Part shown: positions 9,381 to 51,436 of the stretch, in pieces
Layout: the number at the start of each line of letters is the position of its first letter
Numbering within the stretch: the stretch's first letter is position 1
DNA from: Flavobacteriales bacterium
GTDB lineage: Bacteria; Bacteroidota; Bacteroidia; Flavobacteriales_D; CAJJDF01
Reading direction: 5' to 3'
Assembly (NCBI GenBank): GCA_965655625.1
Contig: CBFHHA010000008.1
Span: 3,742 to 67,741 of the forward strand
Length of the DNA: 64,000 nt
Notes under the pieces: model-generated
The model's input: only the letters and a program-made list of their open reading frames with translations
Told to the model about the DNA's origin: nothing
Databases searched by the model: none
Program-made: the position numbers and the translations under genes

Positions 9381-9420
9381 AAATATATCTTTATAAAAAT
9401 CTGTAATGGTTTTTTAGGAC

Positions 9421-9500
9421 GTCACACTAGAACAATCAAAAATTAGGTTGTAACGATTATTAATATTCTATTTTTGGAGCCTTTTTGGTAACACAGATCT
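9421..9500 (+). repeat. Intergenic E-element copy E1
   Basis: GTCACACTAGAACAATCAAAAATTAGGTTGTAACGATT ... TTTTTGGAGCCTTTTTGGTAACACAGATC. Both boxes are shared with copies E2 to E5. Confidence 0.7.
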
Positions 9501-9676
9501 GTTTCTAAAAAATTAAGATTTTCTTTTTTCGTCCTATTCCTCTTTAATGAATTTTTTTTATTCCTACTGTTCTATTGTTTTTACCTTCGAATAAAATCAA
9601 ATAATAATTATTTCCTACATTAAGATTATCATACAGCCGAAAACAAAAAAGACCTAATTTAAAATAAGGAAAATAA

Positions 9677-27469: not shown

Positions 27470-27497
27470 AATGTTCTTTTTTTCTTTGTGGATTGGA

Positions 27498-30581: not shown

Positions 30582-30732
30582 GGTTCTGTCGCATCTACCA
30601 AATTTAACCGATTTAAATTGATAAAATTCAAATGTCATAAAATAAATTCAATTGAAAATCAGCACTTTAGTTTTTTATCTGATTCCATTTTTCTTAAAAA
30701 AAAGCAAAAAAATAGACAGATGCGACAGAACC
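30582..30732. mobile_element. 151-bp MITE-like unit with 15-17-bp terminal inverted repeats
   Basis: Starts GGTTCTGTCGCATCT and ends AGATGCGACAGAACC. It has no coding capacity, and the 63-aa ORF 30618..30809 looks spurious. Confidence 0.7.
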
Positions 30733-30961
30733 TTAAACGGTGTTTAGAGATGCTAAAATCGAAGAGTATTCATGTTAATAGTTTTCTGGTCATTTACCGT
30801 ATCAAATAATATTTCACTTTGATCGAAGTTAAAGTAGAGTAAAATCAATTTGCCCTCATTTTTTGTAAAAGTAATTATACTTCAAAAGTTGTTTAAAACT
30901 TGCGGTCATTATTAGAATCTTTCTTTTTTTTATACTTAATTTATGTTTAGTTTTGGGAAAT

Positions 30962-31837
30962 ATGAGAAGGTATAAGTTTTCTGGGCACGAAACATTTCAA
31001 TGTAGACACTTTTGGTTGAAGAAAGGATACGATTTCGTTAAGAGTGGCGAGGCATTTAAATCTAAAGAAGCGCTTGTGAAGTTGGGTGTAGGTAAGAATA
31101 TGATTACCTCGATAAGTCATTGGATGAAAGCTTTTAAGGTGGCTGATAATGAATCAGGAGAGCTCACTAAATTTGGTCACTACGTTTTTGGTGAGGAGGG
31201 AAAGGATCCCTACTTGGAGGATATAGGAACACTGTTTTTATTGCATTACAACATCATGACAAATCCTCAGCAAGCATCAATTTATCAGATGACTTTTGAG
31301 GAGTTCAGAAAGACGAGAATTGATTCTGAATTCACAGCAGAATTAATATTTGATTTTGTTACGCGTAAGCTAAAGAAGGAACAAGAAGCTTTCAGTGAGA
31401 AGTCACTTCAGAATGATGTCAAGGTGTTTCTTAGAACATATGAGACTTCTTCAAAACGTGGATCAAAGAGTATAGAAGATGATTTTTCTTCTGTGTTAAT
31501 CGAGCTTGATTTAATAGACCCAATACAGAATACTTTCATAAACGGAGAACAGGTTTGTCGCATTAAATATAACGAGCGCGATGATCTCGATAAGCTTATT
31601 TATCTATATGCGATCTTGGATCAGTTCGAAGGAAGCGAATCTGTTTCGGTGAAGGAAATACAATCAGCCGTCTCCGATAAATTCTTGTGTAATAGAGAGG
31701 GGACAGAAGAGAAGTTAAATGCTTTGAGCGAAGCAGGGTATATTGTTTACAAGCAAGATGCCGGAAGGAAAGAAGTTCAGTTGAAGAATAAACTGAGTAA
31801 GTGGGATGTTCTAAATAAGTATTATGGCAACGTTTAA
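30962..31837 (+). CDS. sspB: DUF4007-like protein, SspB-like component of Ssp-type DNA phosphorothioation
   Basis: MRRYKFSGHETFQCRHFWLKKGYDF is the characteristic DUF4007 N-terminus. ATG 30962 is preferred over the TTG at 30953. It overlaps the next gene by 14 nt. Confidence 0.6.
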   Translation: MRRYKFSGHETFQCRHFWLKKGYDFVKSGEAFKSKEALVKLGVGKNMITSISHWMKAFKVADNESGELTKFGHYVFGEEGKDPYLEDIGTLFLLHYNIMTNPQQASIYQMTFEEFRKTRIDSEFTAELIFDFVTRKLKKEQEAFSEKSLQNDVKVFLRTYETSSKRGSKSIEDDFSSVLIELDLIDPIQNTFINGEQVCRIKYNERDDLDKLIYLYAILDQFEGSESVSVKEIQSAVSDKFLCNREGTEEKLNALSEAGYIVYKQDAGRKEVQLKNKLSKWDVLNKYYGNV

Positions 31838-34800
31838 GATTTCAACGAATATCAACAGGGATGCCGATGCTCAATTAGATTACATCGTAACCAAGAATGC
31901 GAATGAGGTATATAATCGCATCATTCATAACTATTCTAGAGGACAGAATTCATTTACAATCATTGGTTCGTATGGAACTGGTAAGTCTACTTTTCTCTGG
32001 GCGCTAGAGCACCACCTGAGAGGGAATACGAAATTCGATAATCCGGTTAATGGTGAATTTAAAGGAGTCAAGAATTTTGACTTCAAACGAATTGTAGGAG
32101 AATCGACTTCATTCAAGGAGAGGTTCTGTATCGAGTTTGGTTTGTCGAAATATATTTTCTCTTCGAATAAAGAAATTCTGAAGGAATTTGCTGCCCTTTG
32201 TGAAGATATTAATTCAAGGAAACGTGCTTTGGTCATTCTGGTTGATGAGTTTGGAAAGCACTTGGAGTATATCGCGAAGAATAACCCTGAGGAGATGTAT
32301 TTCATTCAGGAACTTGCCGAGTTTTGTAATGATGCCAAACGTCAAGTCATTTTAATTACAACGCTTCATCAAAACTTTTCGGTTTATGCGAAGGGTTTAA
32401 CGAAAGCAGAAAAGAGTGAGTGGGATAAGGTAAGGGGAAGACTTATAGATATAGCATTTGATGAGCCGGTAGAGCAACTATTATTCTTCGCAGCACAGCG
32501 TTTGAAAAGTATTGCGGTTCCCGGGAATCTTCAAAAGATCTACAAAGAAACGGTACACATTATCGCTAATTCTCAACTTCTTGGTAAAGGTTTAGAGAGT
32601 CGATTGGATACATTAGAGGAATTGTTTCCTTTAGAGCCACTTGCAGCAGATGTACTCACAAAATCTTTACAGCGTTACGGACAGAATGAACGCTCTCTGT
32701 TTACATTTCTTGAGTCACCGGAATTATCTAGAAAGATCCATAACCAGCAAGCGTTCAATGTTGCCGATTGTTTTGATTATTTGATAGAAAACTTATCCGC
32801 TGAAATTGAAGATGGAGAGAAGAATCCGTTCAAGCCTCAGTGGAAAGCAGCTGTACTAGCTTTAGAAAAAGCTGAATTCATGTTTGAAGAGTATTATCAA
32901 GCGGTTGCAGATATCGTGAAAACGATTTGCTTGGTCAATATCTTCTCGAACAACGCTGGTCGACTAGATGATAACGTTCTTGTGAGTTATGGAGAGAATG
33001 TTCTTGGAATTAAGAACACGGATTCATTACTCAAAGGACTCGTGGAAAAGCGAATCATTAAATTCTCTAATTACAGATCGAAATACAATTTTATAGATGG
33101 TACGGATGTAGATGTAGAGCAAGAGTTAATCAAGGCAGCGCAACATGTTGACCAGGAGATAAACCTGATTAGCAGACTGGAGTCTTATTTTGATTTTGGG
33201 ATCATCCCTGCAAAGCGAATTCAATTTGAATTGGGTACGCCACGTTTCTTTCAGTTCAACTTTACGAATGAGTTCACATATGAGGAGCCTACAAATGAAA
33301 TTGATGGATATATCAATTTAATATTCACTAAAAAGCGGATATTAAAATTAGTTGAAGAGGGGGGTGAAAATGCTCCTGCTTCTCAAATATTTGTTCTTTT
33401 CATGGAGATAGATAAAATTCAAGAAACCATTTTTGAGATCGACAAGATCAACTATGTAATCCAAAAGTTTGTTGATGACAAGGTTGCAATGAGAATTCTT
33501 AACGAAGAGAAGCTACATCGAACAAATCAGTTAAAGGATTTTGTGGAGGGCGCGTTGTTCTCAAAAGAAGCGAAAGTCACATGGATCTGGAATTCTAAAT
33601 TAGACACACTGTATAGCGGGAAAAAGCGCTCGATTAATTCTTACAGGGATTTGAATCGTCTATTATCGGATGCTGCTCAAATTGCTTATCCTGAGACTCC
33701 TTGTTACCGTAATGAAATGGTGAACAAGGAATACTTGTCTTCACCAATACTTACGGCGCGAAAGGCCTTGATTAGGCAAATTGTAGCCCATGGTGATGAG
33801 AAAGATTTAGGATTCGAGGAGAAACGTTTTCCACCGCAGAAAACAATTTACTTATCCTTATTAAAGGAGACGGGTATTCACCAAGAGGAGAACGGTCGCT
33901 ATTTCTTTGGTAAACCCTCTGATCCGAGCTTCGCTCCACTTTGGGAAAAGAGTGAAGAAGTTCTGAGTAAATCTACCCAATCAAAAATGGCAGTGATTCA
34001 ATTCTATGATGATTTGAAATCTGGAGGGTTCAAATTGAAACAGGGGTTTTTAGATTTTTGGGTTCATTTGTTCTTGGTTATTAAGAAAGAGGACTATGGA
34101 TTGTATTACCAGGATGGAGAATATGTTCCGCACCTGACACCGGAGGTAATGGATCTTGTTTACAAGCATCCCACGAAATACTTTATCAAAGCACTTTCTG
34201 CGGAAGGCGTTCGTTCAGACTATCTAGGGTACTACAAAGAACTAGTAGGATACAACGAATCAAATATTAAAGGTCTAGAATCAAGCTATATTACGATCTA
34301 CGGTAACTTCTTAAGGTTCTATAGAGGCTTAGAGGATTTTACAAAGAAGACGAAGACAGATCTTTCAAAATCTAGCCTTGGTGTAAGAGATGCTATTGCG
34401 AATGCAAAGGACCCAGAAACAGCTTTGTTTACGAGTATACCTGAGGCATTAGGTTATTACGGATTGGAAGAATCTGATCCACGTCTTCAAAATTTCTTAA
34501 TGGATTTACAAGGTGCGATCCGAGAGATCCGAAGTGCTTACGATTGTCTTGTAGATAAGATTGAATTGAACATTAAAGAACATTTGTCAATTGATGTTGA
34601 CAGTTTCGATGAACTCAAAGAACAACTATTCAAGCTATTCCGTGGAGTGAATAAGAATATGATCGCTAATGATAAATTGAAAATATTCTATACACGTGTT
34701 GTTTCCCCTTTGGACGTTAAAAATGCGTATTGGGAATCCCTTTGTGATGCTGCGATAGGTAAGAAGTTAGACAAGGTAACTGATGATGAAGTTCAGTTGC

Positions 34801-35069
34801 TCATTGATAGGATGAAAGGGGAATTCAGTACCCTTATAGACCTCGTTGATATTCATAAGGTTGATCTTGCGGATGACGAAGAAATCATACAGTTTAGTAT
34901 ATTAGACCAATCAGGTGATAAAAATGTTCGTAAAAACCTTATTGTATCTCCTGAAAAGATAAAAGCATCAGAAAAACTGCAAGAGCGATTGGAAGGAATA
35001 CTAGGGGAGGATACAGAAGCAAATAGAATTGCACTATTGCAATTGCTTGAGAAAGAGATTAAAAAATAA
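31824..35069 (+). CDS. sspC: Large P-loop ATPase (1081 aa), SspC-like
   Basis: Walker A GSYGTGKST and Walker B LVILVDEFGKH, followed by a long helical C-terminal region. It lies between the DUF4007 and PAPS-reductase genes as in Ssp loci. Confidence 0.55.
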   Translation: MATFKISTNINRDADAQLDYIVTKNANEVYNRIIHNYSRGQNSFTIIGSYGTGKSTFLWALEHHLRGNTKFDNPVNGEFKGVKNFDFKRIVGESTSFKERFCIEFGLSKYIFSSNKEILKEFAALCEDINSRKRALVILVDEFGKHLEYIAKNNPEEMYFIQELAEFCNDAKRQVILITTLHQNFSVYAKGLTKAEKSEWDKVRGRLIDIAFDEPVEQLLFFAAQRLKSIAVPGNLQKIYKETVHIIANSQLLGKGLESRLDTLEELFPLEPLAADVLTKSLQRYGQNERSLFTFLESPELSRKIHNQQAFNVADCFDYLIENLSAEIEDGEKNPFKPQWKAAVLALEKAEFMFEEYYQAVADIVKTICLVNIFSNNAGRLDDNVLVSYGENVLGIKNTDSLLKGLVEKRIIKFSNYRSKYNFIDGTDVDVEQELIKAAQHVDQEINLISRLESYFDFGIIPAKRIQFELGTPRFFQFNFTNEFTYEEPTNEIDGYINLIFTKKRILKLVEEGGENAPASQIFVLFMEIDKIQETIFEIDKINYVIQKFVDDKVAMRILNEEKLHRTNQLKDFVEGALFSKEAKVTWIWNSKLDTLYSGKKRSINSYRDLNRLLSDAAQIAYPETPCYRNEMVNKEYLSSPILTARKALIRQIVAHGDEKDLGFEEKRFPPQKTIYLSLLKETGIHQEENGRYFFGKPSDPSFAPLWEKSEEVLSKSTQSKMAVIQFYDDLKSGGFKLKQGFLDFWVHLFLVIKKEDYGLYYQDGEYVPHLTPEVMDLVYKHPTKYFIKALSAEGVRSDYLGYYKELVGYNESNIKGLESSYITIYGNFLRFYRGLEDFTKKTKTDLSKSSLGVRDAIANAKDPETALFTSIPEALGYYGLEESDPRLQNFLMDLQGAIREIRSAYDCLVDKIELNIKEHLSIDVDSFDELKEQLFKLFRGVNKNMIANDKLKIFYTRVVSPLDVKNAYWESLCDAAIGKKLDKVTDDEVQLLIDRMKGEFSTLIDLVDIHKVDLADDEEIIQFSILDQSGDKNVRKNLIVSPEKIKASEKLQERLEGILGEDTEANRIALLQLLEKEIKK

Positions 35070-36187
35070 TGACAGAAGTAAAGCACATATTGGGAATATC
35101 AGGAGGGAAGGATAGTGCTGCCTTGGCATTGTACCTTAACCAAATGTATCCAGAAATAAATGTTGAATATTATACGTGTGATACAGGACGGGAACTAAAT
35201 GAGACATATAAACTCATTGAGCGCCTAGAGAGTAGAATGGGACAGAGGATTAAGCTGCTAGATGCGGTAGATCTAGACAATGTCGCAGATAGTTCTCCAT
35301 TTGATCATTTCTTATCATTGTACGGAGGCTATTTACCTTCCTCTACTTCTCGTTGGTGCACAAAGAAACTAAAGTTAGAGCCTTTTGAGAATTACATCGG
35401 AGATGAATCTACGATTTCATATGTTGGAATCCGTGGAGATGAAGATCGTGATGGTTATATTTCAAAGAAGCAAACAGTTCAATCAATCTTTCCATTCAGA
35501 AAGAATATCTGGAGTGAGGATGTGAACAGACTAATCTTGAGTAACACTAATCAGGATCGATTTATTGAAGTTGCGAAAGAAGTTGTAGATCCCATTTACT
35601 TGGATCGATTTATAGGGTATGCGGAAACGCCTATTTCTTCAACTTTTAATCTAAAGCAAAAACTAAATGCGTTGTTGGATGTAAGCATTAAGTCATACAA
35701 CCATGTGGTATTTCAATTATTGAAAGACACTGATTACCCTGTTGGGCAGTTAGAATCATTTCCTCTTATAGATAATGAAGAAAATCTTGTATTAGAAGAC
35801 ATCTTCAACTTATTAGAGGATTCTGGTGTCGGTATTCCAGCCTACTACAAACCACTCGAATATGAAGTGGAAATTGATGGCGAAATCAAAAAGGGCACAT
35901 ACAGTCGCAGTCGTTCAGGATGTTTCTTTTGTTTCTACCAACAAAAAATCGAATGGGTTTGGTTATTAGAACATCATCCCGATTTGTTTGAAAAGGCAAT
36001 CGAATACGAAAAGGATGGTTACTCTTGGATGGATACAGAAACCTTAGAAGAGTTGCGTCAGTCTGACCGCGTAGCGGCTATAAAGAAAGAACACTATTTA
36101 CGAATGAACCGAAACAACCAACAAAAGTCTTGGAAGGACCAAATCCTTGATGCAGATGGTGAGGGTTGTGCAAGTTGTTTTATTTAA
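35069..36187 (+). CDS. sspD: PAPS-reductase/PP-loop ATP pyrophosphatase family protein, SspD-like
   Basis: PP-loop ILGISGGKDSAALALYL; C-terminal Cys motifs GCFFCFY and GEGCASC. The start overlaps the sspC stop (TAATG). Confidence 0.7.
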   Translation: MTEVKHILGISGGKDSAALALYLNQMYPEINVEYYTCDTGRELNETYKLIERLESRMGQRIKLLDAVDLDNVADSSPFDHFLSLYGGYLPSSTSRWCTKKLKLEPFENYIGDESTISYVGIRGDEDRDGYISKKQTVQSIFPFRKNIWSEDVNRLILSNTNQDRFIEVAKEVVDPIYLDRFIGYAETPISSTFNLKQKLNALLDVSIKSYNHVVFQLLKDTDYPVGQLESFPLIDNEENLVLEDIFNLLEDSGVGIPAYYKPLEYEVEIDGEIKKGTYSRSRSGCFFCFYQQKIEWVWLLEHHPDLFEKAIEYEKDGYSWMDTETLEELRQSDRVAAIKKEHYLRMNRNNQQKSWKDQILDADGEGCASCFI

Positions 36188-36210: not shown

Positions 36211-37010
36211 ATGTACATTGACAAATTAAAATTAAAATCTTTTGGCCCCTTTGAAGAACTTTGCTTAAACTTTCATCAAAGAAGTTTAAATCTAGTTTTT
36301 GGCAATAATGGAGCCGGAAAAATCCAAATAGTAGCTGGAATAATTGGAGCAGTTTCTCCGTCTCATGAGCTTTTTATATAATCGAATCCACAAGTTACAC
36401 TGATAGTGAGTTAAACATTTCTCTAATAGAAAATAATCAGGTTGAGAACACATTAATTGCAAGATCATCTGAGACCGAAAGCGGTCTTTTTGTTAGAACA
36501 ACCAATGCTGGAAAAATATCTAAGAAACTTTATGAAGTTGCTAAAAATGAGAAGATGCCTTCACTTCTTTTAAACTTTTCGCTTCATTCTGAAACACTAG
36601 ATAAACGCTCAATTCTATATATTCTTAAGAAAGTGCCAAAAGATATTCCATTAGAACTATGGAATACCATACGTGATATTATAATTGATGGAATGAATTC
36701 TCCAACTCTATCGGTATGGCCATATGTTTTCTTACTTGCAAAGGAAATACATCTAAGACGCAAATACTCGAACTCAATCCCCCTATTGGTTGACCTACCT
36801 ACTTTATTTAATTCTGATTTTGTTCCACTTTTGCTAGATATTTTGAACGAGTTAGCAAAATATGACCAAGTAATTCTATTCTTAAAAGAAGAAGGTAAAA
36901 TCCAAGAGTCAATAGACGAATATCAAGTCCTTTATACATTGCCAAACAAAATTTCAACTCAAAAGCATTATTTATTTGGAGACTCCAACTTGATTTTATT
37001 TCCACAATAA
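36211..37010 (+). pseudogene. Frameshifted, catalytically degenerate SMC/ABC-like mini-ATPase
   Basis: The ORF 36211-36381 (MYIDKLKLKSFGPFEEL...VFGNNGAGKIQ) stops at TAA. A second frame is open from 36369 to 37010 and carries a Walker-B-like PLLVDLPTLFNSD. The two frames overlap at a T5 run (36371-36375). The Walker A has GKI rather than GK[ST], and the Walker B has DL rather than DE. Confidence 0.55.
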
Positions 37011-37269: not shown

Positions 37270-37773
37270 TTATTTCAACACCATATCCAAAAACGAAGTT
37301 GGATTTAAAAAGTGATTTGGGTTATCGTTGATTTTATCTCTAATCAAATTCAACCCACCATTCGTATAGGACTCCATTGTTGTTATTAACTGCTTCACGG
37401 CATCATCTTCACTAACCTCACCTTTTTCCAATTGAATTAGGTCAATGTCCGTTTTAGCAAGCACCGCCATAAACATAAACTCCTGTAGATTACTAAAGTC
37501 CTTGCGCAACGAAGACTTATTCCCCCAGTACTGAATATGATGACTAAAGTCTGTTTTCTTCTCATCCTTCTCAATAGGAGTGAATTCATTCTCATACAAC
37601 CCCAAAAAGAAAGCGTACATGTACAACTCGTAATTAGTACTATAATGCTTTCCTAAATTCAGCTTCTTTTCTCCTTCAGCACCATATTTTTGTGATAATG
37701 CTGTAAATAAATCTTTGTGGTGAACACTATATTTAGGAATTCTTGTTTTCCACTTATCAAATAAACTTTCCAT
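37270..37773 (-). CDS. Small protein resembling 'DNA phosphorothioation-associated protein 4'
   Basis: 167 aa. YELYMYAFFLGLYENEF ... MESYTNGGLNLI matches, as far as I recall it, that Dnd-linked family (..fAa.lG ... EeYaNGGl..l). It is the last gene of the minus-strand operon, 1 nt after the ATPase stop. Confidence 0.45.
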   Translation of the reverse strand: MESLFDKWKTRIPKYSVHHKDLFTALSQKYGAEGEKKLNLGKHYSTNYELYMYAFFLGLYENEFTPIEKDEKKTDFSHHIQYWGNKSSLRKDFSNLQEFMFMAVLAKTDIDLIQLEKGEVSEDDAVKQLITTMESYTNGGLNLIRDKINDNPNHFLNPTSFLDMVLK

Positions 37774-37774
37774 A

Positions 37775-39922
37775 TTACAATGAAATTACTTCAGTATTAA
37801 TCGTTTCTAGGTTCTTTGGATCAAATGGTCTTTCCAGTCTAATCCAGAACGCCTTGTTTCTTTTAACATCTTCAAAATCCTTCTTAATTTCCAACGCATT
37901 TGATGAATCACTAGTTGCTAAGAAATCCTTTAACAATAAAATCTTTTGGTTTCCAGTCTCGTAAATTAAGTTTAGAAATTCTGTTGTTTTGTTATCTCCA
38001 AATGATGATGTTGGAGCATCGAAAATTAACGGATATTTTTCTTCTCTAGCTTCTGAGGCTAATTCAGAAATAGCAAACAAAATCGATATATGCATTGACG
38101 TTAAAAGAGAAGTGTTTGGCTTATAGAATATACGCCCATTCTCTTCCAATTCTGCATCAATAGTTAAACTGTCCTGTCGTTGTAGCTTTGTAAAAACGAT
38201 CGTCCCTGTGAATGAATCCACATTAATTCGACCAAAGAATTCATTAGATTTATCTTGCAGTTTTTGAATGAATTCGTCAAACTTTTGAGATTTCGTTTCA
38301 TTAAAAATTGTCTCAATATCTCTGAGAATCTCACGAGTCTTGACTAGGAAGTTGTTCGCTGACTCTAAATCTATTTTATCCTTTTCGGCTTTCATCCTCT
38401 TAAGCTGAGCTTCAACGTCTTCTAAAGAAGCGCCTTCTCTCAATAAAAGTTTGTTCTTTATGGTCAAATCATCTTGCCAGGCCGTATAGTTCTTGAGTAC
38501 ATCATCTAAATCATCTTCCTTAAGTTTGGAGTCACCCAAAACTTTATCACGCTCCTCCTTTTCTTTCTCAAGATCTTTTTCGAGTTGAGCAATATCCTCT
38601 TTGCGCTTTTCATTAAACTCAAAAAGATCCTTTATATCTGTTTTAACCGAACGTAGATCTTTCAAGCTATCTTCGTGCATTGTGTTCAGTGTTACAAGCC
38701 GTGAGGTATAATCAAACTCAAACAGCTCCTCCTCATCCTCCTCGTCTTCTGCTTCTTGAGATGCAAGGTAATTCTTCAAACGAGTTATCATAAACTCATA
38801 CGCTTCAGATCCTTTTGGCGCTTCTCGATTGCACACCTTACACAATTCAGCATCTAGCATCTCTTCCATCACTGCCTTTGACGGTACAGTGACTGGGAGT
38901 GGAATAGCATTCTTCAATAATTCATCCTTGAGCTTCTTCTCCCCCTCTTTCTTTCCTTTCTCTTTGTCAAATTCAGTCTGAAGACGTCTCTTTTCTTTAC
39001 TCAATTCGTTGATCTTATCCGCAAACTCTTTCTGAATCGATTCGAAATTCACCAAAATCCAATTCTCATCAAAGAGGCTTTCAGTGTAATTTTCATTAAT
39101 CAACCCATTCGTGTCATGAATTTTCTTCTGAATTTTATCAATACGCTCATTGATCGTTTTTAACGCCTTAGAATTATTCACAAACTTCCCTGCCGCTTTG
39201 ATCAAATCCTTTAATTTATCAATCTCTTTTTCCGCCGCACCTATTTGGACCTCAATTTGTTTTTTCTTCCTTTCAAGTAATTTAATGTCGGCATCTAATA
39301 CGTTGTATTGAGCAAATTTCTTCTTGTCCTTCTTGGTGGAATCTTCCACTGCCTTTTGAGCCTTTGCCTCAAGGAACTCACCTTTCTTTGAATATTTCTC
39401 GTAATACTTGGCTGCTTGAGAAAAATTATTGATCAGTATTTCAAGAGCAGTCGTATTCTGAAAAATATCTAACTCACTTTCACCCTTAAACATTGAATAC
39501 CTTCTTATTTCACTTGGAAATACTCTGTCGAGTAAATTTTGACCATCCACTGGTGTTCTACTACCGTCGCGAGTTTCTTCCGCACCTTGCAATGTCAAAT
39601 TCGAAGTTTCAAAATCACCACCTGACAACTTTTTAACGTTGAAACTTTTGGATACAACTTGCTTTTCATTGAATTGTTCAGTTGTAATCGATACTTTCAC
39701 TTTTAGCTCTTCCCCTTCATCCAATTCTCCAAGTGCTTTAGCTGAAACTAAACTATTCAAGTCATCGCTTGTTCTTTTAAACAACCATTCAAGCGCTTCA
39801 AAGAATTTCGTTTTACCTTCTCCATTTTCACCTAGCACAATATTCAACCCATCACAAAGCTCAAATTCTTTGACACCGTAGTAGCATAGGAAATTCTCTA
39901 TTGATATCTTTTTTATTATCAT
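37775..39922 (-). CDS. SMC/Rad50/DndD-like ATPase with central CxxC hook
   Basis: The N-terminus IKKISIENFLCYYG...GENGEGKTKFFEALEWLF carries the Walker A. About 450 aa of coiled coil follow, with LCKVCN at residues 360-365 of 715 (nt 38831-38842). The C-terminus has PLIFDAPTSSFGD (Walker B/D-loop). Confidence 0.7.
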   Translation of the reverse strand: MIIKKISIENFLCYYGVKEFELCDGLNIVLGENGEGKTKFFEALEWLFKRTSDDLNSLVSAKALGELDEGEELKVKVSITTEQFNEKQVVSKSFNVKKLSGGDFETSNLTLQGAEETRDGSRTPVDGQNLLDRVFPSEIRRYSMFKGESELDIFQNTTALEILINNFSQAAKYYEKYSKKGEFLEAKAQKAVEDSTKKDKKKFAQYNVLDADIKLLERKKKQIEVQIGAAEKEIDKLKDLIKAAGKFVNNSKALKTINERIDKIQKKIHDTNGLINENYTESLFDENWILVNFESIQKEFADKINELSKEKRRLQTEFDKEKGKKEGEKKLKDELLKNAIPLPVTVPSKAVMEEMLDAELCKVCNREAPKGSEAYEFMITRLKNYLASQEAEDEEDEEELFEFDYTSRLVTLNTMHEDSLKDLRSVKTDIKDLFEFNEKRKEDIAQLEKDLEKEKEERDKVLGDSKLKEDDLDDVLKNYTAWQDDLTIKNKLLLREGASLEDVEAQLKRMKAEKDKIDLESANNFLVKTREILRDIETIFNETKSQKFDEFIQKLQDKSNEFFGRINVDSFTGTIVFTKLQRQDSLTIDAELEENGRIFYKPNTSLLTSMHISILFAISELASEAREEKYPLIFDAPTSSFGDNKTTEFLNLIYETGNQKILLLKDFLATSDSSNALEIKKDFEDVKRNKAFWIRLERPFDPKNLETINTEVISL

Positions 39923-40152
39923 ACCGCTTCCTGATTTAAAAATTGAATTATCTTTTTCTGTAATGCTGAGTCTGACTCTGCCGGAACCTTTTCTTGCGAT
40001 TCAACAATCAGTGCAATTGTCTGAATAATCACATGGTTTGAAGAAAGTCCTTCCCTCAAGTTGTTGGGTAAATCAGATTGATCAATCCCATATTTATCCT
40101 TAACAATGGGGTGTTTTACAAAACTTACAAAAATGTCATCTTTTCTAGCCAT
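39919..40152 (-). CDS. 77-aa hypothetical protein within the restriction-like operon
   Basis: The ORF overlaps the downstream ATPase gene by 4 nt (ATGA) and starts 6 nt after the helicase stop. No family recognised. Confidence 0.45.
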   Translation of the reverse strand: MARKDDIFVSFVKHPIVKDKYGIDQSDLPNNLREGLSSNHVIIQTIALIVESQEKVPAESDSALQKKIIQFLNQEAV

Positions 40153-40158
40153 AGTATG

Positions 40159-42375
40159 TTATTTGCAAAATTCGTTGATGTTCAAATTATAAAATTCCAG
40201 AATCTCTTTCAGGGAATTATAAGTGTCAGTTTTATTGATTGCTAAACACGCAAAGTCTGCGACACGCAAAAGTTCGGTTTTAACTAAATTTCTTTCCATT
40301 TCATAACTAGTGTCTGTTGAATCAGAATTTGGAATTACTACCAAATCATGAATCGTTGCATGTGTCTTGTCCTTGTGTAACCTCAACACTCTTCCTCTTC
40401 TTTGAATAAACTGTCTTGGGTTTCCTGTACTTGCACAGAATATTGCAAGCTCTGAACGTGGTACATCTACACCTTCATCCAAACACTTCATTGAAGTGAG
40501 AACGTGTAGATCTCCCTTTTCATACTTCTCTAATACACTCGAACGATCGGAAGATCCTGATGTAAATGGGTTAACCATTACGAAATCATCCACATCTCTA
40601 ACCGCTCTTGTGTACTCGTGGATCAATCTAATATCATCGTCATCTTCCTCATCAACATCAACCTGACTGTAATCAGGTTCTAGGCCCTCGGGCACATAAA
40701 CCAAAGTATATTTCAAGTTGTCACGTTTTCTAAACTCCTCTTTCAATATCTGCTTAAAGACATCTAGTTTGTTTGCTGCTTTATGAATAATTCTTTTGCG
40801 CTTCAACAACAAGCGCTCAACCATTTCGTCCTTTTTATAAGTTCCTGTCTTAGGGTCCAAATAGTTCATTAATTGCTTGGAAATCTTGGCGTATTCTACT
40901 TGTTCTTCATCATTCAAATGAACAACATGAGGGTGGTATTCATAAGGACACAGCCACTTCATTTCAAGAGCTTTCTTCATAGAGAAAGAAACTATATATG
41001 GTGGTTCATCATTGAAGAACTCATTAATCGCAAAATTCCCAGCATCATCATATTTTCGATCGGGTGTAGCAGAAAGTCCTATTCTCTTCTGAAGATGGAT
41101 TTCTGGTAAAATCCTTAAGATACTTGACGACCCTAAATTGTGCGCTTCATCCGCAATAAACAGAGTAGAATCTGGCAGTTGTTTGAAGTGGGTTTGAAAC
41201 TTCCTCCTGGTCAAAGAAGCATAAGTGACAATTACAATGAAAGATGTATCAATCAACTTGGACGCTGTGTTGAAGAATGCTAAATTCTTATCCCAACTTT
41301 CTCTAGAACTAACTGTAATTACATTTCTAAAATTGAACTTTGCACATTCTTCCTTCCACTGCTCTACTAATGCTAATGTAGGAACAACTACTACAGCTTT
41401 ATACGTTTTTTTATCCCCACTTTTCTGATATTCGTTCAGCAAGCAATTCAGCGAGGTAATTGTCTTTCCAGTTCCGGTTGCCATTGCAAAGACACCTTTA
41501 TATCCATTCTTGACCCAATTTTCATACGCTTCTTGCTGGTATTCGCGAGGACCTGTTGGGTATGGGAATTTAGGTTCACGCATTACTCGTTCGAACTCAG
41601 TATGAATGTATTTAATGGTCTTTTGAAGTTTCTTATTATCGAAAGAACTTGCTTTTCGTTGAATAAGGTCGTCTTCTTGTATTATCAGTTCATCGATATC
41701 AGGACTTCCAAATTCACTCTTTATTGCAACTTTTACTTGATCAATATCTAAGTAGTTTACTATTTCAGATTTACCTGAAAAGATATCCTCAAAATCCTTC
41801 TTCTGACGAGCAATCATTTTACTCGATCGTGAGTTTTCCCAGCTAAGAAAAGCGTCGAGTTCTTCAAGGTTCTCCAATAATCCAAATGCAGTAAAATTGC
41901 ATGAAGCCTTAAACCCAACAACGTCATTACCATCTGAGAAAATTCCACTTTTATAATGAACAATCCCTTTTCGCCCCTTTGGGGTAACAACTTTAATTTG
42001 AATTCGGTCTTGTGAAATCAAATAAGATAAACATTGAAAGAAATGGGTCCCATAATCGTCCAACGAATCTTTTAGTCTTCGAATATCTCTTAAATCGATC
42101 GGAGCATTTTCAACTTCACTTTCTTGTCCTAGCTTAATTGCTTCTTTGTCTTGTTCTGAAAGAATATTGTTCACTACAAGCCTTAAAACTCCTCCGTTAT
42201 GGATGAATTTTGCGAACCCCAAAGAAAGAACGTTGATCGCAGCTGAACTGAAGTAACCGAGTAGTAGATCAATTGATGTACTGTTGTTTAAACCATTCAA
42301 ATAGAATTCTAGGGGTTCATTTTCTGAACCTGTTCTGTAAGACCTATCTTCCGACCAACCTACTTCTTTAAGCAT
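40159..42375 (-). CDS. PLD(HKD)-nuclease / SF2 DEAH helicase fusion, phosphorothioation-system restriction-enzyme-like
   Basis: HKD-like motif HYKSGIFSD...GFKASCNFT. Helicase motifs: I AMATGTGKT, II FIADEAHNL, III GLSATPDR, VI QRRGRVLR. The start overlaps the cysteine desulfurase stop by 8 nt. Confidence 0.75.
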   Translation of the reverse strand: MLKEVGWSEDRSYRTGSENEPLEFYLNGLNNSTSIDLLLGYFSSAAINVLSLGFAKFIHNGGVLRLVVNNILSEQDKEAIKLGQESEVENAPIDLRDIRRLKDSLDDYGTHFFQCLSYLISQDRIQIKVVTPKGRKGIVHYKSGIFSDGNDVVGFKASCNFTAFGLLENLEELDAFLSWENSRSSKMIARQKKDFEDIFSGKSEIVNYLDIDQVKVAIKSEFGSPDIDELIIQEDDLIQRKASSFDNKKLQKTIKYIHTEFERVMREPKFPYPTGPREYQQEAYENWVKNGYKGVFAMATGTGKTITSLNCLLNEYQKSGDKKTYKAVVVVPTLALVEQWKEECAKFNFRNVITVSSRESWDKNLAFFNTASKLIDTSFIVIVTYASLTRRKFQTHFKQLPDSTLFIADEAHNLGSSSILRILPEIHLQKRIGLSATPDRKYDDAGNFAINEFFNDEPPYIVSFSMKKALEMKWLCPYEYHPHVVHLNDEEQVEYAKISKQLMNYLDPKTGTYKKDEMVERLLLKRKRIIHKAANKLDVFKQILKEEFRKRDNLKYTLVYVPEGLEPDYSQVDVDEEDDDDIRLIHEYTRAVRDVDDFVMVNPFTSGSSDRSSVLEKYEKGDLHVLTSMKCLDEGVDVPRSELAIFCASTGNPRQFIQRRGRVLRLHKDKTHATIHDLVVIPNSDSTDTSYEMERNLVKTELLRVADFACLAINKTDTYNSLKEILEFYNLNINEFCK

Positions 42376-43549
42376 TGAGTGAAATTCTAATTAAACTATA
42401 TGGTTTCAATCTGAGAGCCTTGACAACATGTGATACGTCCATAATACTTGCATTACAAGCGCTTCCAGTAGCAGCAGCGAGTTCTTTAGCTTTCATGATC
42501 AAGAAATCTTCAGCATCTTGTTTGTTCAACGTAATACTTAAAATATGAGGTGCTGTCTTCACATTTCTAAAGTTAATAATTCCAATATTCTTCTCTTCAA
42601 AATAGGCTTGCCATTCTTTGCGTAAAGTGTTTAGTTGGGCGAAATGCTCACCGAATTCTTCAAGTGAAATCCTACATGCCTCTCCGAAGCCTACAATTCC
42701 TGGTGTATTATAGGTTCCTCCTCGCATTCCATTTTCCTGTCCGCCACCGTGCATTAAAGATTCAAGCTTTACACCACTTTTAACATAGAGGGCACCGACA
42801 CCTTTTGGGCCTTTCATTTTATGTCCGGATATACAGAGCATATCAATGTTTTCCTTTGATACACTTACTGCGATCTTTCCAACTGCCTGTGAAGCATCAC
42901 AGAAAAAACAAACATCATTTTCTCTTGCTATTTCACCAATTGCCTGAATATCTTGAATAATACCCGTTTCATTGTTTACAAACATCACACTAATCAATGC
43001 AGTTGTTTCTTTGATTGCTCCTTTGAGATCCTCTAATGAGATCAGTCCATTTTTATCGACATTTAGATAGGTTACCTCGTATCCCTTAGATTCTAAATAC
43101 TCGCAAGTTTTTAAAACTGCCTTATGTTCTGTTGTGACCGTGATGATATGATTTCCTTTTTCCGGATTGGCTTCTAAATAGCCTTTTAATGCCCAGTTAA
43201 TAGCTTCCGTGGCACCAGAAGTGAAATAGATTTCTTTTGAATCTGCATTAATGATGTTGGCTACATGTCCACGAGCCGTTTCAATAGCTCGTTTTGCTTC
43301 TTTACCATATACGTGATTGCTGCTCGCGTTCCCAAAGATCTCATCGAAATAAGGTAGCATAGCTTCTTTCACTCTAGGGTCAACTGGAGTGGTCGCTGCG
43401 TTGTCAAGGTATTTAGGTTGGTTAATCAATTCTCGGAATAAATAAAACTTTGTACTTCTTATAAGTTCTTCATCTGCTGCTCGTGATAGTTGTTTTGCAG
43501 AATATATTAATGAAATAAAACAACGTAAGATATAAAATAGAAACCACAT
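42368..43549 (-). CDS. sspA: Cysteine desulfurase (NifS/IscS class), SspA/DndA-like
   Basis: YLDNAATTPVDPRV, the PLP-lysine loop SGHKMKGPKGVGALY and GGGQENGMRGGT. The first 40 or so codons of the track ORF are atypical, so a TTG at 43429 (giving MINQPKYLDNAATT) may be the real start. Confidence 0.8.
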   Translation of the reverse strand: MWFLFYILRCFISLIYSAKQLSRAADEELIRSTKFYLFRELINQPKYLDNAATTPVDPRVKEAMLPYFDEIFGNASSNHVYGKEAKRAIETARGHVANIINADSKEIYFTSGATEAINWALKGYLEANPEKGNHIITVTTEHKAVLKTCEYLESKGYEVTYLNVDKNGLISLEDLKGAIKETTALISVMFVNNETGIIQDIQAIGEIARENDVCFFCDASQAVGKIAVSVSKENIDMLCISGHKMKGPKGVGALYVKSGVKLESLMHGGGQENGMRGGTYNTPGIVGFGEACRISLEEFGEHFAQLNTLRKEWQAYFEEKNIGIINFRNVKTAPHILSITLNKQDAEDFLIMKAKELAAATGSACNASIMDVSHVVKALRLKPYSLIRISLNA

Positions 43550-43690: not shown

Positions 43691-43841
43691 GGTTCTGTCG
43701 CATTAATTATTTTTTAAACGTTTTTCACTAAAATCGCCCTTCCTTCAAAAAGTTAAATCACCAATAAACAAAGCTTTAGGTTTTTCAATCTTTACCAAAA
43801 ACGGCAAAAATCAGTCGGTTTTTGTTTAATGCGACAGAACC
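43691..43841. mobile_element. 151-bp MITE-like unit
   Basis: GGTTCTGTCGCATTAA ... TTAATGCGACAGAACC. Its interior is related to the 49839-49989 unit. Confidence 0.7.
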
Positions 43842-44284
43842 TAGAAAAGAAGTTAGCAAGACTTGAGGAACGATTCGTTTTTGAAGAAATAAATAAGGCT
43901 CAATACGAAAAATTCAAATCTAAACTCACCCAAGAAAAAAATGAAAAACTAAACTTTTCTGAAAAAGTTGGATATAATTTATCGAACCTAGAAAAAGCGC
44001 TAGAAATAGCTCTCAACAAAGCTCCGGAACTACCTTCATTGTGGACAAATGGAAATTTAGCAGAAAAAAGAAAGATTCAAAAAATGGTATTCCCTGATGG
44101 AATTGAATATGACCATAAAAATGATGAATATCGAACTTTTAGAGTGAATTCCTTTTTCTCCTACATCCCAGTAATATCAAAAGAATTAGGCCATAAAAAA
44201 ACCGGAAAGTTTCGTGAGAAAACGAAAAATTCCGGTTTAGTACTCGAGACGGGACTTGAAACTATATATTTATCCTTATTGTAG
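43829..44284 (+). pseudogene. 3' remnant of a large serine recombinase gene
   Basis: LEKKLARLEERFVFEEINKAQYEKFKSKL...NLEKALEIAL...LWTNGNLAEKRKIQKMVFPDGIEYDHKNDEYRTFRVNSFF resembles the coiled-coil and C-terminal region of Bacteroidota large serine recombinases. There is no resolvase catalytic domain upstream, and the apparent ATG lies inside the MITE terminus. Confidence 0.5.
44237..44260. repeat. attL: 24-bp copy of the tRNA-Leu 3' end
   Basis: TTAGTACTCGAGACGGGACTTGAA is identical (24 of 24) to 51349-51372. Confidence 0.9.
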
Positions 44285-44448: not shown

Positions 44449-45768
44449 ATGGCGACAATTAAATTTTACTATCGGTCAACAAAAGAAACGGCAAATATTA
44501 CCCTTAGATTAATGCATCAAGTTTCAAAAGAAGAAATAATAAGCATTTACGGAAGAACTAACTTCAGAATAGAGAAATCGACTTGGAATGAAACAAGAAA
44601 AAAAACTATAAAAGATGCCGAATTAAGAAATTCAAAAGTTGACATAGAAAAAGAATTAACCAATTTAGAAAATTTTGTTCTCACAAACACTCCTGCTGAT
44701 ATAACAGAGATTAACAAAGAATGGTTAACCGATACAATTAATGAGTATTATAATCCTATAAAAGAACACAAAAACACGGTTGAATATTGGGTACAACATT
44801 TTATTGATAACTCACATACATTTGACAATCCAAAAGGAGGAATCGGACTTGGTAAAAGTAGAGTTGACAGTTATAAGGCATTAAAAAAAACGTTAATTTC
44901 TTTTAATAGTAAATTGACATTGATAGACTGTAATAAAAAAACATTTGACGACTTTAAAAAATGGTTAATTAAGAAACAATATTCGCCTACTACACTATAT
45001 AAAAAACAATCGGACTTAAAAACTATTTGTATTTATGCTCAATCGGAGGGTATGGAGGTATCTCAACAAATTCACTCAATCAAAATCAAAAAAGGGAATC
45101 CATACGAAGACGATATGGACGTTATTACATTAACCGAATTAGAGATTGGTAAGATAGAAAAACTTAATCTTAAAAGGTTATCCTTAATAAATGCGAGAAA
45201 GTGGTTAATATTGGCATGTTATACTGGGCAAAGAGGGCAAAGACTATTAAACAATATCAAAAAGGAAAATTTTAAACCATATAAAGACGATTTAATTATC
45301 AGGTTTCAACAATCAAAAGGAAACAAAACGGTAACAATTCCGGTTTTACCAAAAGTAAAGGATATCTACAATAATGGTTTACCTTATGAAATTAGTCTTC
45401 AGAAACTTAATACCTATTTTAAAGAATTAGGAGAAAAGGCAGAAATAAACGAACCGACTATTGGAACAATTAGAGAAAGTATAGAAGTCTCAAAAGGTAA
45501 GAGTATTCAAAGAAATGTAAAAAAAGAACGTGAAAAATGGAGGTATATCTGCTCACACATAGGAAGAAGAACATTTGCGACTAATCACTATAATAAACTA
45601 CCTACTACACTAATTATGAGGGTTACGGGTCACGGGAAAGAATCCGACCTACTTACATACATAAACCAAAAGAATGACGACCACTTGGACGTATTTTTTG
45701 ACTACTATAAAACCAAAGAAGAAGAAAAAGAAACTCCAATAAAGCAATTAAAAACAGTAAACAAATAG
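44449..45768 (+). CDS. int: Tyrosine-type site-specific integrase
   Basis: Bacteroidota integrase architecture: N-terminus MATIKFYYRS.. (Arm-binding type) and a catalytic region with ...LACYTGQRG..., HIGRRTFATN and VTGHGKESDLLTYI. Confidence 0.85.
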   Translation: MATIKFYYRSTKETANITLRLMHQVSKEEIISIYGRTNFRIEKSTWNETRKKTIKDAELRNSKVDIEKELTNLENFVLTNTPADITEINKEWLTDTINEYYNPIKEHKNTVEYWVQHFIDNSHTFDNPKGGIGLGKSRVDSYKALKKTLISFNSKLTLIDCNKKTFDDFKKWLIKKQYSPTTLYKKQSDLKTICIYAQSEGMEVSQQIHSIKIKKGNPYEDDMDVITLTELEIGKIEKLNLKRLSLINARKWLILACYTGQRGQRLLNNIKKENFKPYKDDLIIRFQQSKGNKTVTIPVLPKVKDIYNNGLPYEISLQKLNTYFKELGEKAEINEPTIGTIRESIEVSKGKSIQRNVKKEREKWRYICSHIGRRTFATNHYNKLPTTLIMRVTGHGKESDLLTYINQKNDDHLDVFFDYYKTKEEEKETPIKQLKTVNK

Positions 45769-49838: not shown

Positions 49839-49989
49839 GGTTCTGTCGCATTAATTATTTTTCGACCATTTTTCATCAAATTCTTTGAATGTTTAAAAAG
49901 TTATCGCACATTAGTTCAACGGTTTATGATTTTTTGTTTTGTATGAATTATGCTTCAAATAGTGATTGTTTAGTTAATGCGACAGAACC
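49839..49989. mobile_element. 151-bp MITE-like unit
   Basis: GGTTCTGTCGCATTAATTATTTTT ... TAGTTAATGCGACAGAACC. Confidence 0.7.
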
Positions 49990-51348: not shown

Positions 51349-51372
51349 TTAGTACTCGAGACGGGACTTGAA
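51349..51372. repeat. attR: 24-bp repeat overlapping the 3' end of tRNA-Leu
   Basis: Identical to 44237-44260. Confidence 0.9.
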
Positions 51373-51436
51373 CCCGTACGTCCCAGAGGACACAAGATTT
51401 TAAGTCTTGCGTGTCTACCAATTCCACCACTCGAGC
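51353..51436 (-). tRNA. tRNA-Leu (anticodon UAA)
   Basis: Hand-folded. Acceptor GCTCGAG/CTCGAGT, D-arm GTGG..CAC, anticodon stem CAAGA/TCTTG with loop CTTAAAA, long variable arm, T-arm ACGGG-TTCAAGT-CCCGT. 84 nt; CCA is not encoded. Confidence 0.85.

Follow-up and report, generated by a model that had tools for sequence, protein, structure and literature searches.

A PbeABCD module linked to SspBCD phosphorothioation genes and headed by the desulfurase gene sspA in Bacteroidota

Described systems and the layout of the locus

PbeABCD is an anti-virus module described by Xiong 2019 (PMC6459918) and re-annotated by Rakesh 2024 (PMC10853773). In Haloterrigena jeotgali A29, the cassette encodes PbeA with PLD, ResIII and Helicase_C domains, a 66-aa PbeB, PbeC with an AAA_23 domain and a 152-aa PbeD. 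All four genes are necessary, DNA phosphorothioation (PT) is required in trans, and plasmids with single pbe deletions are described as retaining PT modification (PMC6459918). In this archaeal dndCDEA-pbeABCD cluster, dndA is located directly 5' of pbeA (PMC6459918). The 2019 survey classed 320 of 553 pbeAC pairs as "solitary", with no dndCD nearby, and contained only two Bacteroidetes PbeAC entries (Xiong 2019, PMC6459918), so the Bacteroidota clade considered here was essentially unsampled at that time. In the literature searched, the published partners of Pbe are Dnd or methylases. Since the published family takes in "solitary" and methylase-linked members, Dnd adjacency is not obligatory for PbeABCD.

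In Rakesh 2024 (PMC10853773), the CxC ABC-ATPase-DndE conflict systems, whose original description is credited there to reference 24, Krishnan et al. 2020, combine an HKD-SF2 helicase and a zinc-hook ABC ATPase with two small proteins, one that evolves rapidly and one that is a partner, and variable additional nucleases or effectors lie nearby. The present locus resembles them in each of these respects. HKD-mediated cleavage is proposed for PbeA in the same paper, which couples these systems to DndD-DndE/DndAC modules and cytosine methylases and, in the passages on them, names Ssp only as a separate system. In the SspABCD-SspE and SspABCD-SspFGH systems (Xiong 2020; Wang 2021, PMC8092258), SspBCD and a desulfurase form a modification module, as here, and an adjacent effector tells self from non-self by single-strand PT. 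SspE is a DUF262-DUF1524 protein, and the three-gene SspFGH includes the Walker-A protein SspF and the FtsK-like SspH, with an FtsK/SpoIIIE-like C-terminus (PMC8092258); both are unrelated to the effector found here. Among 2,678 sspBCD clusters, 83.9% lack SspE or SspFGH (Wang 2021, PMC8092258).

The window analysed here is a 64,000-nt stretch of a Flavobacteriales genome, in which two operons converge. The plus-strand operon comprises sspB (30953–31837), sspC (31824–35069) and sspD (35069–36187). The minus-strand operon begins with sspA (42368–43549) and continues with the four pbe genes in the order A-B-C-D, forming one tightly packed putative transcription unit. The TAA stop of sspA and the ATG start of pbeA lie in an 8-nt overlap, AATGCTTAAA; a 6-nt gap separates pbeA from pbeB, pbeB and pbeC overlap by 4 nt (ATGA), and a 1-nt gap (TAA-T-ATG) separates pbeC from pbeD. 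These spacings in the chain of five open reading frames had been given by an earlier sequence-only reading and were reproduced to the base by the ORF listing. The same geometry occurs in loci L005, L006 and L001. Tight chaining is therefore not private to the source genome, as the junction geometry repeats in related loci.

A frameshifted small ABC-ATPase-like gene (36211–37010, plus strand) lies between sspD and pbeD. Its 56-aa N-terminal ORF matches the N-termini of PtuA/GajA at 4e-8, as well as AAA_23/AAA_27, and the gene runs on to 37010 in a different reading frame and has a Walker-B-like motif (LLVDLP). This gene was found in none of the other surveyed loci. The slot between the ssp and pbe genes is variable and holds other defence-like genes, and cargo genes occupy the sspD-pbeD slot in other convergent loci. 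A repeat of 13–16 nt, GGTTCTGTCGCAT, lies upstream of both operons and was considered as a conserved operator; since it is missing from all 86 other loci, this was rejected, and the repeat is a genome-specific MITE-like element. A scan for sigma-70 promoters and terminators revealed no enrichment relative to shuffled sequences, the sigma-70 model being unsuited to Bacteroidota.

The four pbe products and the Ssp proteins

PbeA (40159–42375, minus strand; 738 aa) matches the whole of the PADLOC PbeA model PDLC02706 (E = 0, 1089 bits; residues 11–729 on model positions 1–722 of 722). It also matches TIGR04095, dnd_restrict_1 (1.6e-120, 403 bits), under the 600-bit cutoff of that family, so its PGAP label would probably be just "DEAD/DEAH box helicase family protein". 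Most plasmid homologues of PbeA carry this label. The N-terminal region (residues 23–182) matches NF042964, phospholipD_antiphage (1.2e-8), and contains an HxK...D...SxN motif (H140, K142, D148, S158 and N160), followed by a Walker A motif (GTGKT), a DEAH motif and the ResIII and Helicase_C regions (Pfam: ResIII, 1.6e-26; DEAD; Helicase_C, 4.7e-10). The five motif residues are invariant, also in a sampled haloarchaeal PbeA, to which the protein is only about 29% identical. Pfam PLDc_2 matches the N-terminal domain marginally, in 2 of 13 members with E about 0.05, and no PLD-fold match to it was found among PDB sequences. The predicted PLD/HKD assignment follows from the NCBIfam match, the invariant motif and the literature. 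The helicase core resembles archaeal XPB/Rad25. The joining of an SF2 ResIII-type translocase to a nuclease recalls the Type I/III restriction enzymes (HsdR, Res), whereas the nuclease here is of the HKD and not the PD-(D/E)xK type.

PbeC (37775–39922, minus strand; 715 aa) is a Rad50/DndD-like ABC ATPase with coiled-coil arms. Its head matches AAA_23 (2e-9), AAA_15 and SMC_N in Pfam and contains the Walker A motif GENGEGKT. A central cysteine pair, CKVC (residues 361–364), is located at relative position 0.50 in a zinc-hook-like arrangement. In the reference PbeABCD copies, taken from Haloprofundus and Pseudanabaena plasmids, the CxC of PbeC likewise lies at the midpoint, although the canonical spacing is CxC and that of the window is CxxC. 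PADLOC places LmuB of Lamassu (1.3e-15), an SMC-like ATPase, slightly ahead of PbeC (1e-12). A Chitinophagaceae counterpart with the same gene order and 23% identity (tblastn) matches the PbeC models best, at 1.9e-29. The placement of the protein in the PbeC family relies on the PADLOC matches, this bridging homologue and the midpoint cysteine pair. In contrast to the Type I/III systems and Lamassu, the locus has no methyltransferase, specificity subunit or LmuA effector.

PbeD (37270–37773, minus strand; 167 aa) had been likened in the sequence-only reading to "DNA phosphorothioation-associated protein 4", and the profile comparisons uphold this. Its direct match to TIGR04062 (dnd_assoc_4) is weak (E = 0.009), and 34 of 50 diverse members of its family match this model, the best at 1.1e-11. 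In hhalign, PbeD aligns with a protein named "DNA phosphorothioation-associated protein 4" by PGAP (95.5%, E = 1.3e-8) and with the Haloprofundus PbeD, assigned by position (80.8%, E = 1.3e-5). An E-x-Y-[AT]-N-[GA]-G motif is common to PbeD and these partners. The family counts 645 close homologues, and clustering at 50% yields 231 representatives. Of the four proteins PbeD varies least, whereas PMC10853773 presents it as a diversifying specificity subunit and as a cognate of DndE. The DndE relationship was not reproduced: Foldseek paired the AF2 model (pLDDT 76.6) neither with the DndE structures 4LRV and 7X4E nor with any other structure at E < 1, the family profile matched no PDB sequence, and no family member matched Pfam DndE at E ≤ 0.1. 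The beta-alpha-alpha elements of the model are compatible with RHH-like units and carry no evidential weight for kinship with DndE.

The small gene between pbeA and pbeC (39919–40152, minus strand; 77 aa) had seemed to be an extra gene outside any description; in position and size it corresponds instead to the PbeB of the published cassette, and its 4-nt overlap with pbeC also fits. PbeB comprises 66 aa in H. jeotgali, 67 aa in Haloprofundus, 57 aa in Pseudanabaena and 75 aa in a Chitinophagaceae metagenome-assembled genome. The protein has only 31 homologues, with 46–79% identity, and the lowest conservation of the four (mean pairwise identity 0.57). Its AF2 model is a five-helix fold (pLDDT 84.8); it is thus predicted to be folded and helical, whereas the small protein of the CxC ABC-ATPase-DndE systems is given as disordered in PMC10853773. 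No homology to the Chitinophagaceae and Haloprofundus PbeB was detected by hhalign (probabilities of 4% and 0.3%), and a search for relatives in sequence or fold beyond its close homologues found none. This dissimilarity between clades fits a fast-evolving protein and does not prove orthology.

The catalytic motifs of the module are kept at 95% or more in 23 loci, including the Walker A, CKVCN and FDAPTSSFG motifs of PbeC. Together with the Pfam and NCBIfam matches, this bears out the domain composition proposed from the sequence for all four products. Judged by the end-to-end PbeA match, the placements of PbeC and PbeD, and the published gene order and sizes, the four genes belong to an anti-virus module already known, PbeABCD; they had alternatively been proposed as a new PT-dependent effector architecture, and this does not hold. 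The caution of the same reading against equating them with SspFGH was well placed, as no SspF/G/H or DndF/G/H model matches any locus protein at E ≤ 0.01 in PADLOC 2.0, which we assume to contain the SspFGH models, and neither PADLOC nor NCBIfam reveals DndF, DndG or DndH (DptFGH) homologues among the four proteins.

The adjacent PT genes encode SspB, SspC and SspD, and DndC, DndD and DndE were not found beside the module. SspB matches its PADLOC model over the full length (2e-83) and Pfam DUF4007 (7.4e-72). The large ATPase SspC matches at E = 0 (1077.6 bits; residues 12–1055 on model positions 2–1036 of 1039), and the PAPS-reductase-like SspD matches its model at 2.1e-84 and Pfam PAPS_reduct at 1.8e-8. 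The cysteine desulfurase SspA (393 aa; Pfam Aminotran_5, 1.9e-78) contains a PLP-lysine motif (SGHK) and a catalytic cysteine motif (GSAC), and scores almost equally as SspA (4.6e-140) and DndA (5.3e-138) in PADLOC. Its true start is probably 3' of the first ATG, as homology starts near residue 47. By these matches the SspABCD modification module is complete, with PT chemistry as its predicted activity.

Linkage of ssp and pbe genes across Bacteroidota

Related loci were gathered by a metagenome scan with a PbeD alignment; a genome-contig scan with a single PbeA yielded two loci. Within the fetched flanks of 10 kb, sspB, sspC or sspD was found in 36 of the 83 related loci, 44 of which lie on contigs too short to judge linkage. 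Nine complete pbe modules are flanked by 10 kb on either side, and every one of them has ssp genes. Only three fully flanked loci have none, and all three contain Pbe remnants. Remnant PbeD or PbeC fragments occur in loci L004, L054 and L070. The contigs of distant PbeD representatives are too short to show their neighbourhoods. Of 26 sspA/pbeA junctions, 17 are overlaps of 8 nt and 25 span at most 10 nt, whether the layout is co-directional or convergent. In both layouts, sspA is apart from sspBCD and stays with pbeA. A second, remoter clade in Chitinophagaceae, with a PbeA 51% identical, is likewise convergent with sspBCD. Across loci, the identity of PbeA to its counterpart in the window does not covary significantly with that of SspD (rho 0.24, p 0.25).

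Both the Ssp-Pbe linkage and the start-stop overlap of sspA and pbeA are kept in a large clade of Bacteroidota. The survey thereby confirms the association with PT modification genes and the tight coupling to the desulfurase that had been read from the single locus. Compared with H. jeotgali A29, the gene order, the domains, the tight operon beside PT genes and the desulfurase gene directly upstream of pbeA are shared. In contrast, the writer here is SspBCD (single-strand PT; a DUF4007 SspB and the SspC ATPase) and not DndCDE, the host is a bacterium of the Bacteroidota and not a haloarchaeon, and the modification genes sspBCD are convergent and not upstream. SspABCD as partner in place of DndCDEA, with sspA heading the pbe operon throughout a Bacteroidota clade, looks new. 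No description of this pairing was found in the literature searched, and a mention in Xiong 2020 (Nature Microbiology) or Krishnan 2020 (NAR) is possible. The module thus belongs to a known family, of which it appears to be a new, Ssp-coupled variant.

Proposed role and alternative explanations

We interpret the locus as a PT-based defence island in which sspBCD and sspA-pbeABCD act together and Pbe is a PT-licensed effector, with a probability of about 0.78. SspA would draw sulfur from cysteine and hand it to SspD, and SspA/SspD together with SspB and SspC would place single-stranded PT marks on the host DNA. PbeC and PbeD may form an ATP-driven pair that scans DNA, and PbeA would be the effector that translocates on DNA without the host PT pattern and nicks it, cleaves it or stops its replication. 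PbeB could be an adaptor or a regulator specific to its clade. If the H. jeotgali system is a guide, host PT would be required to license Pbe activity, in which case having sspA as the first gene of the pbe operon would match sulfur supply to effector level. The trait described for PbeABCD, a PT-dependent antiviral activity with a block of viral DNA replication, is predicted for the module here; for both the PT dependence and the act of the effector, be it cleaving DNA or blocking replication, the extrapolation starts from a single Dnd-linked archaeal system, whose PbeA shares only about 29% identity with this one.

The strongest competitor, which we consider unlikely, is that PbeABCD is self-contained and does not read PT, its proximity to ssp genes being just defence-island clustering. 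Rakesh et al. (PMC10853773) describe CxC ABC-ATPase systems often without Dnd genes and question the PT restriction role, PbeABCD on a haloarchaeal plasmid lies beside a methyltransferase and none of its annotated neighbours is a PT gene, and the variable defence-like genes between the ssp and pbe blocks, as well as the missing covariation of PbeA and SspD identities, would also agree with this explanation. However, linkage within the clade is near-obligate among fully flanked complete modules and outlasts a change of orientation, and random clustering would not be expected to keep the stop of a modification gene overlapping the start of pbeA, base-exact in 17 of 26 loci.

Somewhat less probable still is an explanation in which PbeC-PbeD form a second target-selection module like DndD-DndE, using the common sulfur pair SspA/SspD to install another PT pattern or to signal the state of modification, so that Pbe needs sspA directly. 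It would account for the constant company of sspA and pbeA away from sspBCD, for a desulfurase equally SspA-like and DndA-like, and for dndA directly before pbeA in the archaeal cluster (PMC6459918); in addition, PMC10853773 describes PbeC as forming the sister clade to DndD and treats PbeD as the cognate of DndE. On the other hand, the single pbe deletions of H. jeotgali are described as still PT-modified (PMC6459918), a complete SspB/SspC recognition pair is already present, no similarity of PbeD to DndE was detected by Foldseek, the PDB profile search or Pfam DndE, and the HKD-helicase fusion suggests an effector and not a writer. Decay of the locus into a non-functional remnant is very improbable: the frameshifted gene between the operons and the fragments in three related loci hint at decay, whereas all nine ssp/pbe ORFs are intact and full length relative to the models, with their catalytic motifs kept. 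An SspFGH or DndFGH module in disguise, as the adjacency of sspBCD and the presence of an ATPase might suggest, can practically be dismissed, given four genes in place of a three-gene module without homology to them, the different SspF and SspH, and a PbeA match at E = 0.

Returning to the PT-licensed defence island, a bolder extension appears possible yet rather doubtful: Pbe may read single-stranded PT written by Ssp, its licensing thus being free of Dnd proteins, double-stranded marks and any particular motif, and the desulfurase may be a direct functional or physical part of the Pbe effector complex. The direct role is suggested by the base-exact sspA/pbeA overlap and by the desulfurase gene upstream of pbeA in both archaeal Dnd-linked and bacterial Ssp-linked systems. 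If true, the desulfurase might, for instance, confer sulfur-dependent licensing, or desulfurase-pbeABCD might travel as a mobile block that changes partners between the dndCDE and sspBCD writers.

In practical terms the finding changes little: the PADLOC PbeA model already detects the module. For the biology of these systems, the Ssp-Pbe pairing in Bacteroidota joins two gaps, the solitary pbeAC pairs and the partnerless sspBCD clusters, and some of the sspBCD clusters without SspE or SspFGH may have Pbe as their partner. It also offers a bacterial, genetically tractable setting in which HKD cleavage can be set against replication block by Pbe. If confirmed, Pbe would join the effectors of single-strand PT as a third class and would be a portable reader of PT marks, irrespective of the writer.

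Layout of the locus and its surroundings

Three plus-strand genes, sspB (30953–31837; DUF4007; PADLOC SspB, 2e-83), sspC (31824–35069; PADLOC SspC, E = 0, whole model covered), and sspD (35069–36187; PADLOC SspD, 2.1e-84), converge on a set of minus-strand genes, and the locus thus consists of sspBCD facing sspA and four further genes. The minus-strand genes in the ORF table are sspA (42368–43549, 393 aa), pbeA (40159–42375, 738 aa), the pbeB-equivalent (39919–40152, 77 aa), pbeC (37775–39922, 715 aa), and pbeD (37270–37773, 167 aa). The product of sspA is a cysteine desulfurase with a class-V aminotransferase fold. The tight chaining of these genes claimed from the sequence is exact in the ORF table and the junction sequences: from sspA to pbeD, successive genes overlap by 8 nt, lie 6 nt apart, overlap by 4 nt (ATGA), and lie 1 nt apart. 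Bacteroidia ribosomes are reported not to recognise Shine-Dalgarno sequences (PMC9976891), which bears on possible termination-reinitiation coupling in the operon. T9SS sorting-domain proteins are encoded in the window, and the close homologues come from Confluentibacter, Cryomorphaceae, and Bacteroidota MAGs; both features assign the host to Bacteroidota.

The locus adjoins, on the outer side, the left copy of a perfect 24-nt direct repeat, TTAGTACTCGAGACGGGACTTGAA (44237–44260 and 51349–51372), which duplicates the 3' end of tRNA-Leu(taa) (51352–51436, minus strand). Between the repeats lies an element of low GC content, about 7.1 kb long, which carries an integrase-like gene (44449–45768, plus strand) with a Phage_int_SAM_5 domain. 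Since the Ssp–Pbe locus lies directly outside the left repeat, it is possibly an earlier island at this tRNA site. Three MITE-like elements of about 150 bp with inverted GGTTCTGTCGCAT...ATGCGACAGAACC termini are located at 30582–30733, 43691–43841, and 49839–49989, one of them upstream of sspB and another upstream of sspA, and solo ends occur near 30156, 43635, and 48649. The terminal motif has seven matches in the window, compared with 0.01 expected by chance. Its absence from 86 other loci led us to reject a conserved Ssp–Pbe operator in favor of a genome-specific MITE-like repeat. The 767-aa product of the minus-strand gene at 25205–27508 contains long collagen-like Gly-X-Y repeats (Pfam Collagen, 3.9e-67), which give rise to a local peak in GC content and to large families of tandem repeats.

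Assignment of the module to the PbeABCD family

In the PbeABCD cassette of H. jeotgali, PbeA combines PLD-like, ResIII, and Helicase_C domains, PbeC contains AAA_23, and PbeB (66 aa) and PbeD (152 aa) are of unknown function; the genes form one co-transcribed unit, and each of the four is required (PMC6459918). The window genes agree with this published cassette one for one in order, sizes, and domains. Judged by these sequence comparisons, the window module belongs to the known PbeABCD family. The domain calls of the sequence-only reading for the 738-aa, 715-aa, and 393-aa proteins hold in domain searches, whereas its proposal of a new effector architecture, if the module were not SspFGH, gives way to this known family. 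SspFGH was rejected as the identity, as this three-gene set (Walker-A SspF, SspG, and FtsK-like SspH) has no homology to the window proteins (PMC8092258); in the PADLOC search, no SspF/G/H or DndF/G/H model matched at E ≤ 0.01.

In PbeA, an HxK...D...SxN motif lies at the N-terminus, ahead of Walker A, DEAH, ResIII, and Helicase_C, and the helicase core resembles XPB/Rad25 translocases. Residues 11–729 align to positions 1–722 of the 722-position PADLOC PbeA model PDLC02706 (E = 0, 1089 bits). Against NCBIfam TIGR04095, 'DNA phosphorothioation system restriction enzyme', PbeA gives 1.6e-120, and its 403 bits fall below the 600-bit curated cutoff. In the re-annotation by Rakesh et al. (PMC10853773), PbeA is an HKD endoDNase-SF2 helicase, PbeB a small protein that evolves rapidly, PbeC an ABC ATPase with a CxC zinc hook, and PbeD a cognate of DndE. 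Xiong 2019 observed no cleavage of viral DNA (PMC6459918). The HKD residues are invariant between the window clade and a haloarchaeon, and this sequence conservation favors the view of Rakesh et al. that PbeA catalysis matters.

PbeC has an AAA_23/SMC_N head, and its modest PADLOC scores leave the assignment ambiguous (LmuB, 1.3e-15; PbeC, 1e-12). A Chitinophagaceae module with the identical gene order encodes a PbeA 51% identical to that of the window, and its ATPase finds its best match in the PbeC models (1.9e-29). The window PbeC carries a Cys pair, CKVC, at residues 361–364, exactly mid-protein; this pair, the Walker A motif, and the FDAPTSSFG Walker-B/D-loop are at least 95% conserved over 23 loci. 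Canonical PbeC contains CxC at the same relative position, whereas the window clade contains CxxC. The Rad50 hook is CxxC.

The 77-aa gene, described as 'extra' in the sequence-only reading, corresponds to PbeB in position and size. This naming rests on position, size, and coupling, because similarity to PbeB of other clades is undetectable and the family search gave no match. The protein has just 31 homologues and shows the lowest conservation among the four module proteins, while PbeD shows the highest (mean pairwise identity of 0.57 for PbeB, 0.64 for PbeC, 0.70 for PbeA, and 0.75 for PbeD). AlphaFold2 predicts with confidence that the protein folds into five helices (pLDDT 84.8); a search for PDB relatives found none. 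Rakesh et al. describe the small protein as 'mostly disordered' (PMC10853773), whereas PbeB of the window clade is predicted to be folded.

By itself, PbeD matches TIGR04062 at only E = 0.009. Its family comprises 645 close homologues (231 representatives after 50% clustering), and 34 of 50 diverse members match TIGR04062, the best at 1.1e-11. The family profile aligns with the PGAP 'DNA phosphorothioation-associated protein 4' of the Pseudanabaena Pbe locus (95.5% probability, E = 1.3e-8), and with the positional PbeD of the Haloprofundus plasmid (80.8%) and the Chitinophagaceae MAG (90.8%). A motif, E-x-Y-[AT]-N-[GA]-G, is common to the aligned proteins. The TIGR04062 matches and profile alignments bear out the resemblance of the ESYTNGGL region to the family of that name, as proposed in the sequence-only reading. 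The proposed relationship between PbeD and DndE was not reproduced. The high conservation of PbeD, set beside SspB and SspC that are only 32–56% identical to the window copies across the surveyed loci, argues against a role for PbeD as the diversifying specificity subunit in the window clade. Some PbeD homologues (P0006, P0010, and others) carry the precomputed Pfam accession PF27807, and family members matched no such family in the Pfam copy searched. PF27807 may have been set up recently for this protein and so be absent from that copy.

Linkage to ssp genes across related loci

The survey comprised 80 metagenome loci retrieved with a PbeD alignment and a few genome loci, onto which all window proteins were mapped. 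Within the fetched flanks, sspB/C/D were present at 36 of 83 loci, with 44 of the remaining contigs too short for judging linkage. All nine complete modules for which 10 kb can be seen on either side have ssp. Among fully flanked loci only three lack ssp, and these hold Pbe remnants. At L004, one of the three, a PbeD gene 73% identical to that of the window and a PbeC C-terminal fragment (9349–10513) lie directly behind a Wadjet JetABCD operon; PbeA and ssp genes are absent, and the pair is apparently a Pbe remnant. At 24 of the 36 loci, the ssp genes lie upstream in the same direction (sspC-sspD-[cargo]-sspA-pbeABCD); at the other 12 they lie downstream and are convergent, like those of the window. 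In both layouts, the sspA stop and pbeA start are closely joined, with the identical 8-nt overlap in 17 of 26 junctions and a value of 10 nt or less in 25. This retention indicates that sspA travels with pbeA and that the layout break falls between sspD and sspA.

Across related loci, the break point is a variable slot for other defence-like genes (L017:2069–4252, L001:6572–8732, L012:2935–4268, L044:10541–12300, L006:4197–5275, and L005:507–4221). Its contents include a GmrSD_N/NsnA-like protein with a Ser/Thr kinase, a pair present in two distant clades, as well as a DEDDh exonuclease, a DndB-like protein, a nucleoside deoxyribosyltransferase-like protein, and several unknowns. The window slot, between sspD and pbeD (36211–37010, plus strand), holds a small ABC-ATPase-like gene frameshifted near a T-run. 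The N-terminal 56 aa contain a degenerate Walker A (GNNGAGKI) and match PtuA/GajA N-termini, and the remainder, in another frame, contains a Walker-B-like LLVDLP. This gene has no counterpart in the other Ssp–Pbe loci surveyed.

Ssp was reportedly first described in 2020, later than the 2019 PbeAC survey. That survey used haloarchaeal queries, contained only two Bacteroidetes entries, and found 320 of 553 pbeAC without dndCD (PMC6459918). Wang 2021 reported that 83.9% of sspBCD clusters have no known effector (PMC8092258). The introduction of a late-2024 Wang laboratory paper assigns the effector modules DndFGH and PbeABCD to Dnd, and SspE and SspFGH to Ssp. The Ssp–Pbe pairing was not found in the literature searched, in which the partners of PbeABCD are DndCDEA or methylases; a prior mention in Xiong 2020 or Krishnan 2020 is possible. 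The methylase-linked form is exemplified by Haloprofundus sp. MHR1 plasmid pMHR1-1 (L090:9872–16140), where a site-specific DNA methyltransferase comes after PbeABCD of 703, 67, 666, and 152 aa, and the annotation shows neither Dnd nor Ssp genes within 10 kb.

An Ssp-coupled Pbe variant and its proposed mechanism

The element that looks new here is a conserved Ssp-coupled variant of Pbe in Bacteroidota, in which sspA is fused to the operon, PbeC carries a CxxC hook, and PbeB is predicted to be folded. In the proposed mechanism, SspA and SspD would deliver the sulfur, and SspB/SspC would choose and prepare the single-strand PT sites. PbeC-PbeD would scan the DNA, and PbeA would act on DNA without the host mark. 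Since archaeal Pbe shows neither activity nor toxicity when PT is absent (PMC6459918), the position of sspA at the head of the pbe operon would match the effector level to the sulfur supply.
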